Shown one piece after another: positions 28,053-62,804 of a stretch of 64,000 nucleotides of DNA. Both the position numbers and the translations under genes were made by a program. How positions within the stretch are numbered: the stretch's first letter is position 1; each line of letters opens with the position of its first letter. Source of the DNA: Escherichia phage vB_EcoM_SYGD1. The DNA is taken from sequence record MW883059, one strand, 5' to 3'. The notes under the pieces are model-generated. The model was given only the letters and a program-made list of their open reading frames with translations. It was not told where the DNA came from and searched no databases.

Positions 28053-28685
28053 ATGAATATAGTATATTGGTTTACATTTGAAGACCGTATCAAAAATAAG
28101 ACTCCGCCGTACTACTATATCGGCAGTAAATTAAATTGCTCATTTGAGAATGGAATAATATATGACTCTTCCGGAAAGGAATACTGGAGTTCGTGTAAAC
28201 AAAAAAGATTTTTAAATGCGGTAATGCTTCAAAAACCGAGCGTTAAAATAATTCAAATTGATGATGATTTGGATGTTATTGAAGCAGAGCGAAAATACCA
28301 ACTTGAAGTAAATGCCAGAGATAATCCAGACTATTTTAATCTGGTATATGCCGGTGGCGGATTTGGTGTGAGTGGTGAAACTCATCCAGCCAAAGACCCG
28401 GAAGTTAGAGAGCATATGAGATTGGCTAATTATATGAACCGTGACGATTTTAGACCTTGGAAAACATCACGAGCTAATATAGAGTCTTGGAAATTATCTC
28501 ATATTGCTTACGAGAATTATGTGTTATTATTATCCTCTAATCTGTACGGTAAAACTCCTGGATGGCGAAGAGTTAAAGGTAATATAAATATAACTGATAC
28601 AACTGCTAAATCGATGGTAAAGTATTTCAATTCAGGTTGGATACCTCTCGAAGACCCAGAGTATTGCGAATTATGCCAGCTATGA
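28053..28685 (+). CDS. segG: free-standing GIY-YIG homing endonuclease, SegG-like
   Basis: N-terminal IVYWFT...YYIGSKLN GIY-YIG-like motif; occupies the 59-32 interval where T4 carries segG. Confidence 0.55.
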   Translation: MNIVYWFTFEDRIKNKTPPYYYIGSKLNCSFENGIIYDSSGKEYWSSCKQKRFLNAVMLQKPSVKIIQIDDDLDVIEAERKYQLEVNARDNPDYFNLVYAGGGFGVSGETHPAKDPEVREHMRLANYMNRDDFRPWKTSRANIESWKLSHIAYENYVLLLSSNLYGKTPGWRRVKGNINITDTTAKSMVKYFNSGWIPLEDPEYCELCQL

Positions 28686-31580: not shown

Positions 31581-31928
31581 ATGAATTTTAATTATTACCC
31601 TATTCTATTAGAAAAAGACACGAAACAGCCAAAGTGGCAGGGTCCTCAGTTTATTAAAGGTGTCTATCAATTAGTAGTTCCTAAAGACAAGATTTATAGC
31701 AGTTGTTTCACTGAATCCGCTTGCAGTATTTTCGGTAATAGTTCTCCGTATTGGAATTTTGACATAAAGCTGGATAGAAATATCGATATTTGGTTGAAAG
31801 CTATGGATATTGGTAATATCATGTTTGATGAGAATAATTATCATATTATTGGTCGCTTTTCCAAACGTGGTAAAGAATTATATTTCACACCTGAAATTGA
31901 GAGAAAATTTGATGCTAAACCGTATTGA
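31581..31928 (+). CDS. hypothetical protein 115 aa inserted between frd and td
   Basis: ORF with no motif I recognise; frd and td are adjacent in T4 as I recall. Confidence 0.45.
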   Translation: MNFNYYPILLEKDTKQPKWQGPQFIKGVYQLVVPKDKIYSSCFTESACSIFGNSSPYWNFDIKLDRNIDIWLKAMDIGNIMFDENNYHIIGRFSKRGKELYFTPEIERKFDAKPY

Positions 31929-31973: not shown

Positions 31974-32522
31974 ATGAAACAATACCAAGATTTAATTAAA
32001 GACATTTTTGAAAATGGCTATGAAACCGATGACCGAACAGGCACAGGAACAATTGCTTTATTCGGTACTAAATTACGCTGGGATTTAACTAAAGGTTTTC
32101 CTGCGGTAACAACTAAGAAGCTCGCCTGGAAAGCTTGCATTGCTGAGCTACTTTGGTTTTTATCAGGAAGCACAAATGTCAATGATTTACGATTAATTCA
32201 GCATGATTCGTTAATCCAAGGCAAAACAGTTTGGGATGAAAATTACGAAAATCAGGCAAAAGATTTAGGATACCATAGTGGTGAACTTGGCCCAATTTAT
32301 GGAAAACAGTGGCGCGATTTTGGCGGTGTAGATCAAATTGTAGAAGTTGTTAATCGTATTAAAACATTTCCCAACGATAGGCGTCAAATTGTGTCGGCAT
32401 GGAATCCAGCTGAACTTAAATATATGGCATTACCACCTTGTCATATGTTCTATCAGTTTAATGTGCGTAATGGTTATCTTGATTTACAATGGTATCAACG
32501 CAGTGTAGATGTTTTCTTGGGT
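31974..32522 (+). CDS. td: thymidylate synthase, exon 1 (183 codons)
   Basis: Ends ...DLQWYQRSVDVFLG at the known T4 td 5' splice site; in-frame TAA begins the intron. Confidence 0.92.
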
Positions 32523-32842
32523 TAATTGAGGCCTAGGTATAAGGTGACTTATACTTGTAATCTATCTAAACGGGGGACCTCTCTAGTAGACAATCCCGTG
32601 CTAAATTGTAGGACTACCCTTTAATAATTTCATCAGGATTAGTTACTTACCGTGTAAAATCTGATAAATGGAATTGGTTCTACATAAATGCCTAACGACT
32701 ATCCCTTTGGGGAGTAGGGTCAAGTGACTCGAAACGATAGACAACTTGCTTTAACAAGTTGAAGATATAGTCTGATCTGCATGGTGACATGCAGCTGGAT
32801 ATAATTCCGGGGTAAGATTAACGACCTTATCTGAACATAATG
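32523..32842 (+). ncRNA. group I self-splicing intron in td, 320 nt, no endonuclease ORF
   Basis: Starts UAAUUGAGGCCU...GUAAUCUAUCUAAACGGGG, ends ...CUGAACAUAAUG as the T4 td intron; 3' half matches recalled T4 core; no internal ORF. Confidence 0.85.
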
Positions 32843-33154
32843 CTTCCATTTAATATTGCATCATATGCTACGTTAGTTCATATTGTAGCTAAGATGTGTA
32901 ATCTTATTCCGGGAGATTTGATATTTTCCGGTGGTAATACTCATATCTATATGAATCACGTAGAACAATGTAAAGAAATTTTGCGTCGTGAACCTAAAGA
33001 GCTTTGTGAACTGGTAATAGGCGGATTGCCTTATAAATTCCGCTATCTTTCTACTAAAGAACAATTGGAATACATTCTTAAACTCAGGCCTAAAGATTTC
33101 GTTCTCAAAGATTATCAGTCCCACGGCGTCTTGAAAGGAAAAATGGCGGTGTAA
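32843..33154 (+). CDS. td: thymidylate synthase, exon 2 (103 aa)
   Basis: Begins LPFNIASYATLVHIVAKMCNL; joined product 286 aa as T4 TS. Confidence 0.92.
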   Translation, partial: LPFNIASYATLVHIVAKMCNLIPGDLIFSGGNTHIYMNHVEQCKEILRREPKELCELVIGGLPYKFRYLSTKEQLEYILKLRPKDFVLKDYQSHGVLKGKMAV

Positions 33155-33721: not shown

Positions 33722-35976
33722 TTAATGTTATCAAAAGTAGTGGTGTTTCTCAGAGCTTTGACCCGCAAAAAATTATTAAAGTTTTATCTTGGGCAGCTGA
33801 AGGAACATCAGTAGATCCTTATGAATTATATGAAAATATTAAATCTTATCTCCGTGATGGAATGACAACTGATGATATTCAGACTATTGTCATTAAGGCC
33901 GCTGCGAATTCTATTTCGGTTGAAGAGCCTGATTATCAATATGTAGCTGCACGTTGTTTAATGTTCGCTCTTCGTAAGCATGTTTATGGGCAGTATGAAC
34001 CACGTTCATTTATTGACCATATTTCTTACTGTGTAAATGAAGGTAAATATGACCCTGAATTATTGTCAAAATATTCAGCAGAAGAAATTACATTTTTAGA
34101 ATCAAAAATTAAGCACGAGCGGGATATGGAATTTACTTATTCCGGGGCGATGCAATTAAAAGAAAAATATCTAGTTAAAGATAAAACCACTGGTCAAATT
34201 TATGAAACTCCACAGTTTGCATTTATGACTATTGGAATGGCATTGCATCAAGATGAACCTGTTGATAGATTAAAACATGTTATCCGTTTTTATGAAGCGG
34301 TATCTACTCGACAGATTTCATTACCAACTCCTATTATGGCTGGTTGCCGTACTCCAACTCGGCAGTTTAGTTCATGTGTTGTTATTGAGGCAGGCGATTC
34401 ACTGAAGTCTATCAATAAGGCTTCTGCTTCAATTGTTGAATATATCTCTAAACGCGCTGGAATTGGTATTAACGTTGGTATGATTCGTGCTGAAGGTTCT
34501 AAGATTGGCATGGGTGAAGTACGCCATACTGGTGTTATTCCTTTTTGGAAACATTTTCAGACTGCTGTTAAATCATGCTCACAGGGTGGAATTCGTGGCG
34601 GCGCTGCTACTGCTTATTATCCTATTTGGCATTTGGAAGTTGAAAATCTTCTTGTTTTGAAAAATAACAAAGGCGTAGAAGAAAACCGTATCCGTCATAT
34701 GGATTATGGCGTCCAGTTGAATGATTTGATGATGGAACGTTTTGGAAAGAACGACTACATTACTTTGTTTAGTCCGCATGAAATGGGTGGCGAGCTTTAT
34801 TATTCTTATTTTAAAGACCAAGACCGTTTCCGCGAATTATACGAAGCAGCAGAAAAAGACCCTAATATTCGCAAAAAGCGTATTAAAGCCCGTGAACTAT
34901 TTGAATTACTCATGACTGAACGATCAGGAACAGCAAGGATTTATGTGCAGTTCATTGATAATACGAATAATTATACTCCGTTTATTCGTGAAAAGGCACC
35001 TATTCGTCAGAGTAACTTGTGTTGTGAAATTGCTATTCCAACAAATGATGTGAATAGTCCTGATGCTGAAATTGGATTGTGTACTCTCTCTGCATTCGTA
35101 CTAGATAATTTTGACTGGCAAGACCAAGATAAAATTAATGAATTGGCAGAAGTTCAAGTTCGTGCTCTTGATAATCTGTTGGATTACCAAGGATATCCAG
35201 TTCCTGAAGCAGAAAAAGCTAAAAAGCGTCGTAACCTCGGTGTAGGTGTTACCAACTATGCAGCTTGGCTGGCAAGTAACTTTGCTTCTTATGAAGATGC
35301 TAATGATTTAACACATGAACTATTTGAGAGATTACAGTATGGACTCATTAAAGCATCCATTAAGCTCGCAAAAGAAAAAGGACCTTGCGAATATTATTCA
35401 GACACTCGTTGGTCTCGAGGCGAATTACCTATCGACTGGTACAATAAAAAGATTGACCAAATCGCAGCTCCAAAATACGTTTGTGACTGGTCGGCGCTGC
35501 GGGAAGACCTTAAGCTCTTTGGCATCCGTAATAGCACATTATCAGCACTTATGCCATGTGAGTCATCTTCCCAAGTTTCTAACAGTACAAACGGTATCGA
35601 GCCTCCACGTGGACCAGTCTCTGTTAAAGAATCAAAAGAGGGTTCCTTTAATCAAGTCGTGCCCAATATTGAGCATAACATAGACCTATATGATTATACA
35701 TGGAAATTAGCTAAGAAAGGTAATAAACCTTATCTTACGCAGGTAGCTATTATGCTGAAATGGGTATGTCAATCAGCTTCAGCGAATACATACTATGACC
35801 CGCAGATTTTTCCAAAAGGAAAGGTTCCAATGTCAATAATGATTGATGACATGTTATACGGATGGTATTATGGCATTAAAAATTTCTATTATCATAATAC
35901 CCGTGATGGTTCTGGTACTGATGATTATGAAATAGAAACTCCTAAAGCCGACGATTGTGCAGCGTGTAAATTGTAA
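33712..35976 (+). CDS. nrdA: ribonucleotide reductase large subunit (754 aa)
   Basis: Exact T4 NrdA length; class Ia RNR motifs. Confidence 0.95.
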   Translation: MQLINVIKSSGVSQSFDPQKIIKVLSWAAEGTSVDPYELYENIKSYLRDGMTTDDIQTIVIKAAANSISVEEPDYQYVAARCLMFALRKHVYGQYEPRSFIDHISYCVNEGKYDPELLSKYSAEEITFLESKIKHERDMEFTYSGAMQLKEKYLVKDKTTGQIYETPQFAFMTIGMALHQDEPVDRLKHVIRFYEAVSTRQISLPTPIMAGCRTPTRQFSSCVVIEAGDSLKSINKASASIVEYISKRAGIGINVGMIRAEGSKIGMGEVRHTGVIPFWKHFQTAVKSCSQGGIRGGAATAYYPIWHLEVENLLVLKNNKGVEENRIRHMDYGVQLNDLMMERFGKNDYITLFSPHEMGGELYYSYFKDQDRFRELYEAAEKDPNIRKKRIKARELFELLMTERSGTARIYVQFIDNTNNYTPFIREKAPIRQSNLCCEIAIPTNDVNSPDAEIGLCTLSAFVLDNFDWQDQDKINELAEVQVRALDNLLDYQGYPVPEAEKAKKRRNLGVGVTNYAAWLASNFASYEDANDLTHELFERLQYGLIKASIKLAKEKGPCEYYSDTRWSRGELPIDWYNKKIDQIAAPKYVCDWSALREDLKLFGIRNSTLSALMPCESSSQVSNSTNGIEPPRGPVSVKESKEGSFNQVVPNIEHNIDLYDYTWKLAKKGNKPYLTQVAIMLKWVCQSASANTYYDPQIFPKGKVPMSIMIDDMLYGWYYGIKNFYYHNTRDGSGTDDYEIETPKADDCAACKL

Positions 35977-36707
35977 TGAATTATCAAAAAATCTATAATG
36001 ACCTAATTTCCCGAGCTCAGGCTCGGGAACATTTATCCGAGTATAAAGAGACACATCATATAGTCCCTAAATGCATGGGAGGTTCTGATGATAAAGAAAA
36101 TTTAGTTGAATTAACAGCTAGAGAACATTTTATAGCGCATCTATTACTATGCAAGATAAATGAAGGCCATTTTGGTCTTGCCTCTGCGTTAACGTTAATG
36201 GCAACAGATAAAGCTGGTAATAGAATTAATAACAGATTGTATAGCTTGCACAGAAAATTATTTGCTAAAGCTAATTCTGATTTCTTTAAGAAATATTGGA
36301 AAAATAATCCTCATCCTAGAGGAATGTTAGGCAAGCATCATAAAAACGAAACTAAACAACATGTATCAAACGTGAATAGGTATGCATGCCCATCTATCGA
36401 AATACATAAATTCTCATTAGATGGGGATTTCATAGAAACCTTTCACTCTATTGCCGCAGCGTCCAGGTCAGTTAATGGAAACGGGTCAAATATCAAATAT
36501 TGTGCTGAGGGTAAATTTCAATATGCCTATGGATTTCGATGGGCATATCAACTTGATGCAAAGTTTGACAAAATACAACCAAGAGATTATAAAGGAATCC
36601 GCGGTAAGAAATGGATTAATAATGGAAGTGAATGCACGCTTATAGGTAAAGATGATATTATACCGCCAGGTTGGAAACGCGGCAGAATTTTAAAGAGGAA
36701 AAATTAA
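35976..36707 (+). CDS. mobE: free-standing HNH homing endonuclease, MobE-like
   Basis: HNH motif ETHHIVPKCMGGSDDKENLVELTAREHFIAH; start overlaps nrdA stop and stop overlaps nrdB start; same locus as T4 mobE. Confidence 0.8.
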   Translation: MNYQKIYNDLISRAQAREHLSEYKETHHIVPKCMGGSDDKENLVELTAREHFIAHLLLCKINEGHFGLASALTLMATDKAGNRINNRLYSLHRKLFAKANSDFFKKYWKNNPHPRGMLGKHHKNETKQHVSNVNRYACPSIEIHKFSLDGDFIETFHSIAAASRSVNGNGSNIKYCAEGKFQYAYGFRWAYQLDAKFDKIQPRDYKGIRGKKWINNGSECTLIGKDDIIPPGWKRGRILKRKN

Positions 36708-37885
36708 TGTCTACAGTTTTTAATACAAATCCAGTTGATGTTTTAAAAGAACCTATGTTTTTTGGTTCAGGTCTTGGTATTGCGCGTTATGATATTCAAC
36801 GTCATAAAGTTTTTGAAGATTTGACCGAAAAGCAATTGTCGTTTTTCTGGCGGCCTGAAGAAGTAAACTTAATGATGGATGCTGCGCAGTTTAATAAGCT
36901 TCCTCAGTATCAGCAAAATATTTTTACTAACAACCTGAAGTATCAATCACTTTTGGATAGCATTCAGGGTCGTGCGCCGTCTGCTGTACTTATGTCATTA
37001 ATTTCAGACCCAAGCCTTGATACATGGGTTGCTACATGGACTTTTAGTGAAACTATTCATAGTCGTTCATATACTCATATCATGCGAAATCTTTATACTG
37101 ATCCGTCAAAGGTATTTGATGAGATTGTATTAGATGAAGCTATTATGAAACGTGCTGAATCCATTGGACGTTATTATGATGACGTTCTGATTAAAACTCG
37201 TTATTGGGAAAACGCTAAAGCTGCTACAGCATTTAAATTTGAAATTAATGCAGACGAAGACGTTATTGAAGATGCTATTGAGCATGAAATGTATTGGAAA
37301 CGTGAACTAATGCGCTCTCTTTACCTCTGCCTGCACGTAATCAACGCATTGGAAGCTATTCGTTTTTATGTATCTTTCGCATGTACCTTTAACTTCCATA
37401 AAAACATGGAAATCATGGAAGGTAATGCCAAGATTATGAAGTTCATTGCGCGTGATGAGCAGCTTCATCTTAAAGGCACCCAATATATTATTCGTCAGCT
37501 TCAATCCGGTACTGATGGCGATGAATGGGTTAAAATTGCTCAAGAGTGTGAACAAGAAGCAGTTGATATTTTCATGGAAGTTAACCGCCAAGAAAAAGAT
37601 TGGGCAGTTCATTTATTTAAAGATGGAGATGTTCCTGGATTAAATACAAATAGCATGTGGAGCTTTATTGATTACTTAACTGTATCTCGTATGAAACAGT
37701 GTGGTCTTCCATGCCCAATTACCGATGCTCCGGTTAAACATCCATATCCTTGGATTCGTGAATACCTTAATTCTGATAATGTTCAATCCGCGCCGCAAGA
37801 AGTAGAACTGTCATCTTACCTTGTAGCACAGATTGATAATGATGTTGATGATAAAGTTATGATGAGTTTTAAAAAATATTTTTAA
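36707..37885 (+). CDS. nrdB: ribonucleotide reductase small subunit, uninterrupted
   Basis: Begins MSTVFNTNPVDV as T4 NrdB; single continuous ORF. Confidence 0.93.
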   Translation: MSTVFNTNPVDVLKEPMFFGSGLGIARYDIQRHKVFEDLTEKQLSFFWRPEEVNLMMDAAQFNKLPQYQQNIFTNNLKYQSLLDSIQGRAPSAVLMSLISDPSLDTWVATWTFSETIHSRSYTHIMRNLYTDPSKVFDEIVLDEAIMKRAESIGRYYDDVLIKTRYWENAKAATAFKFEINADEDVIEDAIEHEMYWKRELMRSLYLCLHVINALEAIRFYVSFACTFNFHKNMEIMEGNAKIMKFIARDEQLHLKGTQYIIRQLQSGTDGDEWVKIAQECEQEAVDIFMEVNRQEKDWAVHLFKDGDVPGLNTNSMWSFIDYLTVSRMKQCGLPCPITDAPVKHPYPWIREYLNSDNVQSAPQEVELSSYLVAQIDNDVDDKVMMSFKKYF

Positions 37886-62111: not shown

Positions 62112-62804
62112 TTATAAATTAACTGTTTTTCTAAGTATTCTTAGTTTGTACATTGATAATCCAGTAGCTTTAGAAGCATCTTTCATGCATTTATACTTAA
62201 CACCATTTACTTCTATAGGTTTAGCAGCTGGGTTATTAGCTCCTGAATTATCTGGCATGTTATCTTTAATTTTCTGAATAGATTTAGCGGAATGTTTCCT
62301 TCCATACATGCCATTATTTTTACCTGATTGATTGATAGAATGCAATCTTTTAGCTTCTTCAGTCCATTTTGTTGGGTTCATTCTTTTAGTTTTACTAATT
62401 TTACTTCCCCACGTAATTGGACGATTTTTCATGAGTTTTGACATATATTGTTTATGTTCTTCCGTATGGTGTTTTCCGTAAAATGGATTACCTTCACCTG
62501 ATTGAAGTTTTGCCATTTTACGACGTTCCCAGGCGTAAGATTTATTAACGTGTCTTTCATGAGTATTTGAATTCATTCCCATACATATAACGGCTTTAAT
62601 TATACCGTAATGGTTTGGATGAATTTTAGCTAAAAGTTTATGAGCTATAAAATGCTCTTCAGCTGTTAGTTCTACCAAATTACACTTATCATCTGTACCA
62701 CCCATACATCTAGGAATTATATGATGAGTTTCAGTGTATCCATTAAGGCGAGCCCGATTCTGGGCTCTATTAATTAAATTATCATATATTAATTTATAAT
62801 TCAA
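62112..62804 (-). CDS. free-standing HNH homing endonuclease, paralog of the MobE-like gene
   Basis: N-terminus MNYKLIYDNLINRAQNRARLNGYTETHHIIPRCMGGTDDKCNLVELTAEEHFIAH parallels MobE-like ORF; basic C-terminal repeats; start overlaps uvsW stop. Confidence 0.8.
   Translation of the reverse strand: MNYKLIYDNLINRAQNRARLNGYTETHHIIPRCMGGTDDKCNLVELTAEEHFIAHKLLAKIHPNHYGIIKAVICMGMNSNTHERHVNKSYAWERRKMAKLQSGEGNPFYGKHHTEEHKQYMSKLMKNRPITWGSKISKTKRMNPTKWTEEAKRLHSINQSGKNNGMYGRKHSAKSIQKIKDNMPDNSGANNPAAKPIEVNGVKYKCMKDASKATGLSMYKLRILRKTVNL

Follow-up and report, generated by a model that had tools for sequence, protein, structure and literature searches.

A 320-nt td group I intron with an I-TevI relic in Escherichia phage vB_EcoM_SYGD1: probable loss of a homing endonuclease gene by internal deletion

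The closest described relative of the element analyzed here is the td intron of phage T4, which encodes the homing endonuclease I-TevI. An intron of this kind interrupts its own endonuclease's homing site, and intron-bearing alleles are immune to that endonuclease (PMC3984707). Once target sites are saturated, endonuclease genes degenerate, a stage in the homing cycle that has been summarized previously (PMC5009752). Mobility can also be supplied from elsewhere, as for the T4 nrdB intron, which is mobilized in trans by MobE (PMC2790892). According to PMC2729099, which cites Galloway Salvo et al. 1990, td constructs with a shortened P6a self-splice in vitro. Full-length td introns measure 1017 nt in T4 (NC_000866.4) and 1016 nt in U5 (AY262155), TuIa (AY262157), and ZCEC15. 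A seven-sequence alignment shows one additional T following intron position 93 in T4 (NC_000866.4, 5548–6564, − strand) and in no other sequence, and the published G78–C865 numbering fits 1016 nt, not 1017 nt.

We examined a 64,000-nt stretch of Escherichia phage vB_EcoM_SYGD1 (MW883059), referred to as the window. Over 24 kb of it, Tequatrovirus and related genomes match best among public sequences, with ~95% identity, and the genes around td follow the T4 order (gene 32, frd.3/.2/.1, frd, td, nrdA.2, nrdA.1, nrdA, nrdB). The td gene contains a 320-nt group I intron at 32523–32842 (+). A scan with the Rfam group I model, one of the checks proposed by an earlier sequence-only reading, gave a match to RF00028 at 32513–32794 (70.3 bits against a gathering score of 50, E = 8e-16) that covers model positions 1–253 of 253 without truncation and is the sole Rfam hit in the window. 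Exon 1 ends in GTTTTCTTGGGT at 32522, while the intron starts with TAATTGAGGCC at 32523 and ends in AACATAATG at 32842; both junction strings (GTTTTCTTGGGT/TAATTGAGGCC and AACATAATG/CT) match the T4 td junctions of NC_000866.4 exactly. The insertion point, between Gly183 (GGU) and Leu184, is that of the T4 lineage, and nucleotide homology extends across the intron, whose 320 nt depart from T4 at 10 positions, a 1-nt gap included. As in group I introns generally, the 5′ exon ends in U, forming a U(−1)·G9 wobble within a 6-bp P1, and the terminal intron base is G. Judged by every sequence-level feature tested, the intron is of the T4 td lineage with subgroup IA architecture.

Joining 31974–32522 to 32843–33154 maintains the reading frame and yields a 286-aa thymidylate synthase that spans positions 1–266 of 266 of Pfam Thymidylat_synt (316.5 bits). 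It is identical to the T4 enzyme at 270 of 286 residues, the differing codons being 41 synonymous and 16 nonsynonymous. Read-through of the unspliced RNA ends in ...VFLG* at the UAA formed by intron bases 1–3 (32523–32525); an in-frame UAA at the start of the td intron has also been reported for T4 (PMC8565351). From the intact sequence and the in-frame junction, the 320-nt allele is predicted to splice. The sequence-only reading had called the element an ORF-less td group I intron of 320 nt, about a third of the T4 length, with exact T4 splice sites and no I-TevI reading frame, and each of these points was borne out. The T4-type helices P1, P2, P3, P4, P5, P6, P6a, P7 (pseudoknot), P7.1, P7.2, P8, and P9 were laid out on window coordinates, giving the following features.

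31974..32522, + strand: td exon 1, 183 codons, ending in GGT (Gly183), with the six final bases UUGGGU as the P1 5′ strand
32523..32842, + strand: group I intron of the T4 td lineage with P7.1 and P7.2 and without an endonuclease gene (RF00028, T4 alignment, pairs)
32523..32525, + strand: UAA stop in frame with exon 1, at which unspliced translation would end before the ribozyme core (read-through translation)
32531..32536, + strand: internal guide sequence GCCUAG (intron 9–14), pairing with exon UUGGGU as P1; positions 13–14 are AG versus GA in T4, and both pair
32537..32554, + strand: P2 hairpin, 7 bp, GUGA loop (fold and pairing check)
32561..32566, + strand: P3 5′ strand, partner 32736–32741 (pairing check)
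32570..32599, + strand: P4–P5 (6 bp and 3 bp) with J4/5 and J5/4; 32576 (intron 54) is G versus A in T4 (pairing, alignment)
32600..32615, + strand: P6 and P6a 5′ strands (pairing; the G78–C numbering fits PMC2729099)
32616..32675, + strand: L6a loop remnant, 60 nt (756 nt in the full-length intron), holding the deletion junction (alignment)
32627..32695, + strand: I-TevI relic, codons 224–245 plus TAA (tblastn, 22/22)
32676..32691, + strand: P6a and P6 3′ strands (pairing check)
32697..32702, + strand: P7 5′ strand GACUAU, partner 32767–32772 (pairing; role from general knowledge)
32703..32730, + strand: P7.1 and P7.2 hairpins, the subgroup IA extension (fold and pairing check)
32736..32761, + strand: P3 3′ strand and P8 hairpin, 7 bp (pairing; compensatory change in P8)
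32767..32794, + strand: P7 3′ strand, J7/9, and P9 hairpin of 7 bp with a GUGA loop (Rfam and pairing check)
32795..32842, + strand: 3′ terminal domain (P9.1/P9.2 region) with the terminal omega-G at 32842 (all columns invariant versus T4)
32843..33154, + strand: td exon 2, starting with CTT (Leu184), 103 codons plus stop (translation, Pfam)

All 66 pairs of P1–P9 are standard pairs in the window, including those of the group I core (P3–P8, P4–P6, and the P7 pseudoknot); failure of the P3–P9 pairings to form had been named in advance as an outcome that would sink the proposal. In group I introns, guanosine is bound within P7, the pseudoknot helix. The hairpins between P7 and the P3 3′ strand, characteristic of T4 td and subgroup IA, form completely (3/3 pairs in P7.1 and 4/4 in P7.2). 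Across an alignment of seven natural variants, 98.9% of cells are paired, compared with 32–44% when the 3′ partners are slid by 1–3 columns. In e11/2 and N2, one A-U pair of P8 has become U-A through a compensatory double change, and three variable P1 pairs keep pairing, including the guide change GA to AG here and, in Klebsiella phage EI, the replacement of an exon G by A; covariation support is thin, with variants at least 89% identical and just one pair changing on both sides. An unconstrained fold recovers P2, P3, P4, P5, P6/P6a, P7.1, P7.2, P8, and P9, that is, all of the non-pseudoknot hairpins. Published descriptions of td (PMC2729099) give the same P1 substrate strand, UUGGGU, and the same P6 pair, G78–C. 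The 48 nt 3′ of P9 match T4 base for base, so that intactness there rests on identity and not on a pairing model; alternative P9.1/P9.2 pairings were indistinguishable, and none was adopted. By these measures, the deletion described below appears to leave the whole ribozyme intact, with no core helix broken.

One core position deserves separate discussion. Intron position 54, in J4/5, is G in the window versus A in T4 and in the Rfam consensus, and J4/5 docks against the P1 wobble pair in group I introns. A54G sits in a functionally sensitive junction, and a dead intron can be envisaged in which this change, or misfolding of the new L6a, makes splicing inefficient, leaving td a split pseudogene and the phage reliant on host thymidylate synthase. 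Even an intron that spliced poorly might survive for some time, since td is dispensable on thyA+ hosts. We consider this scenario highly unlikely. None of the 66 core pairs is lost, the sequence context of each splice site is preserved, and both exons are open and encode a complete thymidylate synthase domain. Carriers of the same deletion that belong to haplotype B (defined below) keep the T4 state at position 54, so the deletion is not tied to A54G. The core also changes more slowly than the L6a relic (no private changes versus three in 60 nt), and shortened-P6a constructs splice in vitro (PMC2729099).

Alignment to the T4 td intron, with G28 and other variants included, maps the missing part to one 696-nt block, approximately T4 intron positions 107 to 802, inside loop L6a. 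The flanks of the gap are 95–98% identical to T4, with 5 differences in the 5′ segment (intron 1–105, ~95% identity) and 5 in the 3′ segment (intron 106–320, 97.7%). The earlier observation that the 3′ ribozyme half matches T4 is thus correct but too narrow, as the 5′ half matches too. In T4, I-TevI occupies intron positions 133–870 (T4 annotation coordinates), and the deletion takes out its Shine-Dalgarno sequence, ATG, and codons 1–223. The relic that remains at 32627–32695 comprises codons 224–245 (ISSGLVTYRVKSDKWNWFYINA) and the TAA stop, without a start codon. When T4 I-TevI was searched against the intron by tblastn, only residues 224–245 were recovered (32627–32692, 22/22 identical), and stops occur throughout all six frames, leaving no intact homing-endonuclease ORF of the kind that defines a mobile intron. 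The junction lies between 32627 and 32628 (AATAA/TTTC), with microhomology of merely 2 nt (AA) and a position ambiguous by AA. Only the last codons of the relic overlap the P6a and P6 3′ strands; ~49 nt (intron 105–153) lie in the L6a loop, a part mostly or wholly absent from the three shorter natural forms.

The sequence-only reading offered two origins, a precise loss of the homing endonuclease or an ancestral mini-intron. Since 22 codons and the stop of I-TevI remain, the 320-nt form is best described as a deletion derivative, and the sequence indicates that the endonuclease gene was lost by ordinary internal deletion. Loss of the endonuclease is therefore retained, whereas "precise" does not fit a junction with 2 nt of microhomology that left a relic behind. 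In the ancestral alternative, the 320-nt form would predate invasion by I-TevI, and the full-length introns would derive from it. Endonuclease-free group I introns do exist, endonuclease genes are thought to invade intron loops (PMC3984707), and three substitutions private to the 320-nt lineage (intron 94, 110, and 113), found in none of ~188 full-length copies, indicate that it is not a very recent derivative. An ancestral form is nevertheless extremely unlikely, given that I-TevI codons 224–245 are present with 100% amino-acid identity and followed by the stop, and that ~49 nt of the relic sit in the L6a loop outside any helix. Part of the relic falls within I-TevI residues 169–234, which also match a different, unrelated reading frame at 62139–62333 (−) (32% identity, 69 aa, E = 1e-5); this marks the relic as endonuclease-domain sequence rather than ancestral intron. 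The distinct junctions of the 445-, 315-, 262-, and 254-nt forms show that L6a has been truncated repeatedly, and full-length introns are more numerous and have flanking sequence in common with the 320-nt form. The frame at 62139–62333, which resembles the DNA-binding part of I-TevI, is probably another GIY-YIG or Seg-type endonuclease gene.

The substitutions in and around the relic bear on the age of the deletion derivative. The three private substitutions are grouped within the L6a relic. Outside the relic, differences from T4 either vary among the 320-nt carriers (13, 14, 54, and 240) or occur in other intron forms (253). Once bases that vary among carriers are excluded, 3 private changes are counted in the 60 nt of the relic and none elsewhere, a pattern consistent with weaker constraint on the relic and with a deletion of some age. 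All three differences between the relic and T4 are synonymous. We rejected these as a sign of past coding constraint, as two of the variants occur in 0 of ~188 full-length copies and the third is polymorphic among 320-nt forms; they were more likely made after the deletion. A new function for the relic was likewise rejected, the late-promoter motif TATAAATA being absent from the intron and promoter-like and terminator-like sites occurring at chance level. Neither the deletion junction nor a hypothetical full-length parent with the same variants had a match in IMG/VR, the junction had none in JGI metagenomes, and the intron had none in a plasmid collection.

Used as a query, the 320-nt intron matches 291 phage records, of which ~35 carry a shortened intron. 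All 320 nt are matched in one piece by 16 GenBank records at 98.4–100% identity. Carriers include U115, HP3 and its derivatives, ESh30, L14, Pinarejo, Elenatom, C2-3, Shinka, PYps55T, MLP2, and others; their hosts are E. coli, Shigella, and Yersinia, and they come from several countries. All eight 320-nt carriers fetched share an identical junction string, TACCCTTTAATAATTTCATCAG, which argues that this form arose once. The same recurrence in eight independently sequenced genomes, the 16 one-piece matches, and the perfectly in-frame spliced gene make it practically negligible that a collapsed or mis-joined region in the assembly or sequencing imitates a deletion. Other shortened forms measure 445–446 nt (8 records), 315 nt (1), 262–263 nt (5), and 254 nt (5). 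All are truncated in L6a/P6a with different junctions, giving at least five junctions including that of the 320-nt form, and full-length introns with shared flanking sequence outnumber the latter.

The three shortest forms also pass the Rfam gathering score (63.8–72.6 bits), whereas a gathering-level scan gave no hit in the full-length T4 intron (NC_000866.4) or in the 445-nt forms (G28, e11/2), presumably owing to the long insertion. A gathering-level scan thus looks blind to introns with long loop insertions while finding the 254–320-nt forms, and comparing Rfam scores with T4 was ruled out, as the T4 intron gives no hit at that level. In Klebsiella phage EI (MN106245.1, 1201–1515), the 315-nt td intron is 89% identical to that of the window and has a different junction. 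Two GGAAT repeats flank the EI deletion, which spared the Shine-Dalgarno sequence and an 8-codon ORF. The closing pair of P8 in EI seems to have switched from G-C to C-G, the A at exon position −4 still pairs with U12, and the depositor's note compares the intron to that of a ClosTron plasmid. In the 254-nt td intron of Escherichia phage N2 (ON645936.1, 1201–1454), a short new hairpin, GUUCUUUUGAAC, takes the place of P6a. N2 also encodes a free-standing I-TevI paralogue (2024–2654; 41% over residues 35–241) ~570 bp downstream of td on the opposite strand, a layout reminiscent of collaborative homing.

Two haplotypes can be distinguished among the 320-nt carriers. Haplotype A (AG at 13–14, G54, C128) comprises the window, U115, HP3, ESh30, and Elenatom, and haplotype B (T4 states at 13–14, 54, and 128) comprises C2-3, Shinka, PYps55T, and MLP2. 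Exon 2 is identical to that of the window at 312/312 positions in seven of the eight carriers and at 311/312 in MLP2, while T4 and a full-length-intron phage differ at 36–37 bases. Exon 1 differs from the window at 13–45 bases (up to 8%) among the same carriers, and the gene between frd and td varies as well (a 348-nt or a 207-nt ORF). With exon 2 near-invariant and exon 1 variable, the short intron and exon 2 appear to form a shared block present in several recombinant backgrounds. The last 50 nt of exon 1 (within 32463–32522, +), including the I-TevI cleavage region, show 9 synonymous differences from T4 and the haplotype B carriers, among them a serine codon switch from TCA to AGT (positions −22 to −20), but preserve the CAACG motif of the cleavage site.

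Taken together, the element is very probably a T4-type td group I intron after a 696-nt internal deletion in the dispensable L6a loop, with its ribozyme kept. By the mechanism established for T4 td, it would be transcribed within the td pre-mRNA, and ribosomes would halt at the UAA of intron bases 1–3. The RNA would fold into P1–P9, and free guanosine bound at P7 would attack after U(−1), held in the P1 U·G wobble. The freed exon 1 would then attack after the terminal G at 32842, producing GGU/CUU and the 286-aa thymidylate synthase. Lacking I-TevI, the intron should not promote cutting of intron-less td alleles and would not be mobile on its own; inheritance would be vertical and by ordinary phage recombination. 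The I-TevI homing site is still interrupted, so the carrier should be immune to I-TevI from co-infecting phages. Persistence of the intron would follow from this immunity and from the need for exact excision to restore td. The evidence fits best with a td intron that remains competent to splice yet is immobile, having reached the "endonuclease degenerated" point in the homing cycle.

No other I-TevI gene was found in the 64-kb window, no endonuclease gene lies between frd and nrdA, and no free-standing one adjoins td. The nearest are each ~3 kb away. One, at 28053–28685 (+), is a 210-aa SegG-like homing-endonuclease gene upstream of gene 32 (PHROG 7504, E = 3e-133) in the T4 segG position. The other, at 35976–36707 (+), is a 243-aa free-standing HNH + NUMOD1 endonuclease gene between nrdA and nrdB, in the slot of the 141-aa mobE of T4, and may be Hef-like. 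The nrdB gene (36671–37885) is a single uninterrupted ORF and so has no intron here. Mobilization of the 320-nt td intron in trans is possible but unsupported. A broader version of this idea, which we regard as rather unlikely, is that the endonuclease-free intron is a maintained, spreading allele that confers I-TevI immunity without the cost of an endonuclease and moves as an intron plus exon 2 block, by recombination or through I-TevI supplied in trans by co-infecting phages with full-length introns. The pattern of near-identical exon 2, exon 1 up to 8% different, and different upstream gene content would allow it, and the free-standing I-TevI paralogue of N2 could be a trans source of mobility. 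If true, the 320-nt td intron would be more than a decaying relic.

The deletion derivative also has consequences for annotation. None of eight inspected carrier records annotates the intron, and td is entered as two CDS. In some public records (among HP3, ESh30, Elenatom, and U115), three small hypothetical proteins are predicted inside the ribozyme, flanked by two "thymidylate synthase" CDS. Correction is called for on both counts: td is split into two genes in the records inspected, and the small proteins that several of them place inside the intron are spurious. The RefSeq entry of HP3 is filed under Rosemountvirus despite being T4-like. Between frd and td, two genes that overlap in T4, the window has a 115-aa ORF (31581–31928, +; PHROG 1928 of unknown function, E = 1e-35; no Pfam hit), and other 320-nt-intron carriers have a 207-nt DUF4858 gene in that slot instead.

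The element offers a clean natural case of the homing-cycle stage in which the endonuclease gene is lost and the intron retained, in the best-studied mobile intron, and with at least five junctions the shortened forms constitute a natural counterpart to laboratory L6a/P6a deletion analysis. It leaves the understanding of group I introns unchanged, being an expected decay stage of a textbook element. It is already known in kind, and its exact sequence is already in public phage genomes. Our literature search found no paper on a natural ORF-less td intron, a gap that may lie in the coverage of the search and not in the literature.

Compared with the T4 td intron (IA2, encoding I-TevI), the window has the same gene, insertion site, splice-site sequences, and P1–P9 helices. 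It lacks 696 nt of L6a, comprising the I-TevI ribosome-binding site and codons 1–223, and is thus predicted not to be self-mobile; it also has guide AG for GA, together with A54G, G240A, and C253A. Laboratory ORF-deleted td introns (Galloway Salvo, Coetzee and Belfort 1990; PMC2729099; tools, e.g., PMC8565351) have L6a and the ORF removed and the core kept, measure ~250–390 nt, and self-splice. Those deletions are engineered, whereas the allele in the window is natural, has a junction not taken from them, and carries a relic of 22 codons; the likeness is one of overall design. We also liken the window intron to the T4 nrdB intron with its defunct I-TevIII, in which the endonuclease gene was disabled by deletion, splicing was retained, and the intron persists without mobility of its own (PMC2790892). 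In nrdB, a truncated ORF is left and the adjacent MobE mobilizes the intron in trans, whereas in the window td nearly all of the ORF is gone and no free-standing endonuclease adjoins it. The nearest natural parallels are G28 and e11/2 (445 nt), EI (315 nt), 215Ecol030PP (262 nt), and N2 (254 nt), which share the same intron and site with truncation confined to L6a/P6a. They differ from the window in what the truncation left: G28 and e11/2 keep a 55-codon fusion ORF, EI keeps its Shine-Dalgarno sequence and 8-codon ORF, and N2 carries the GUUCUUUUGAAC hairpin in place of P6a.
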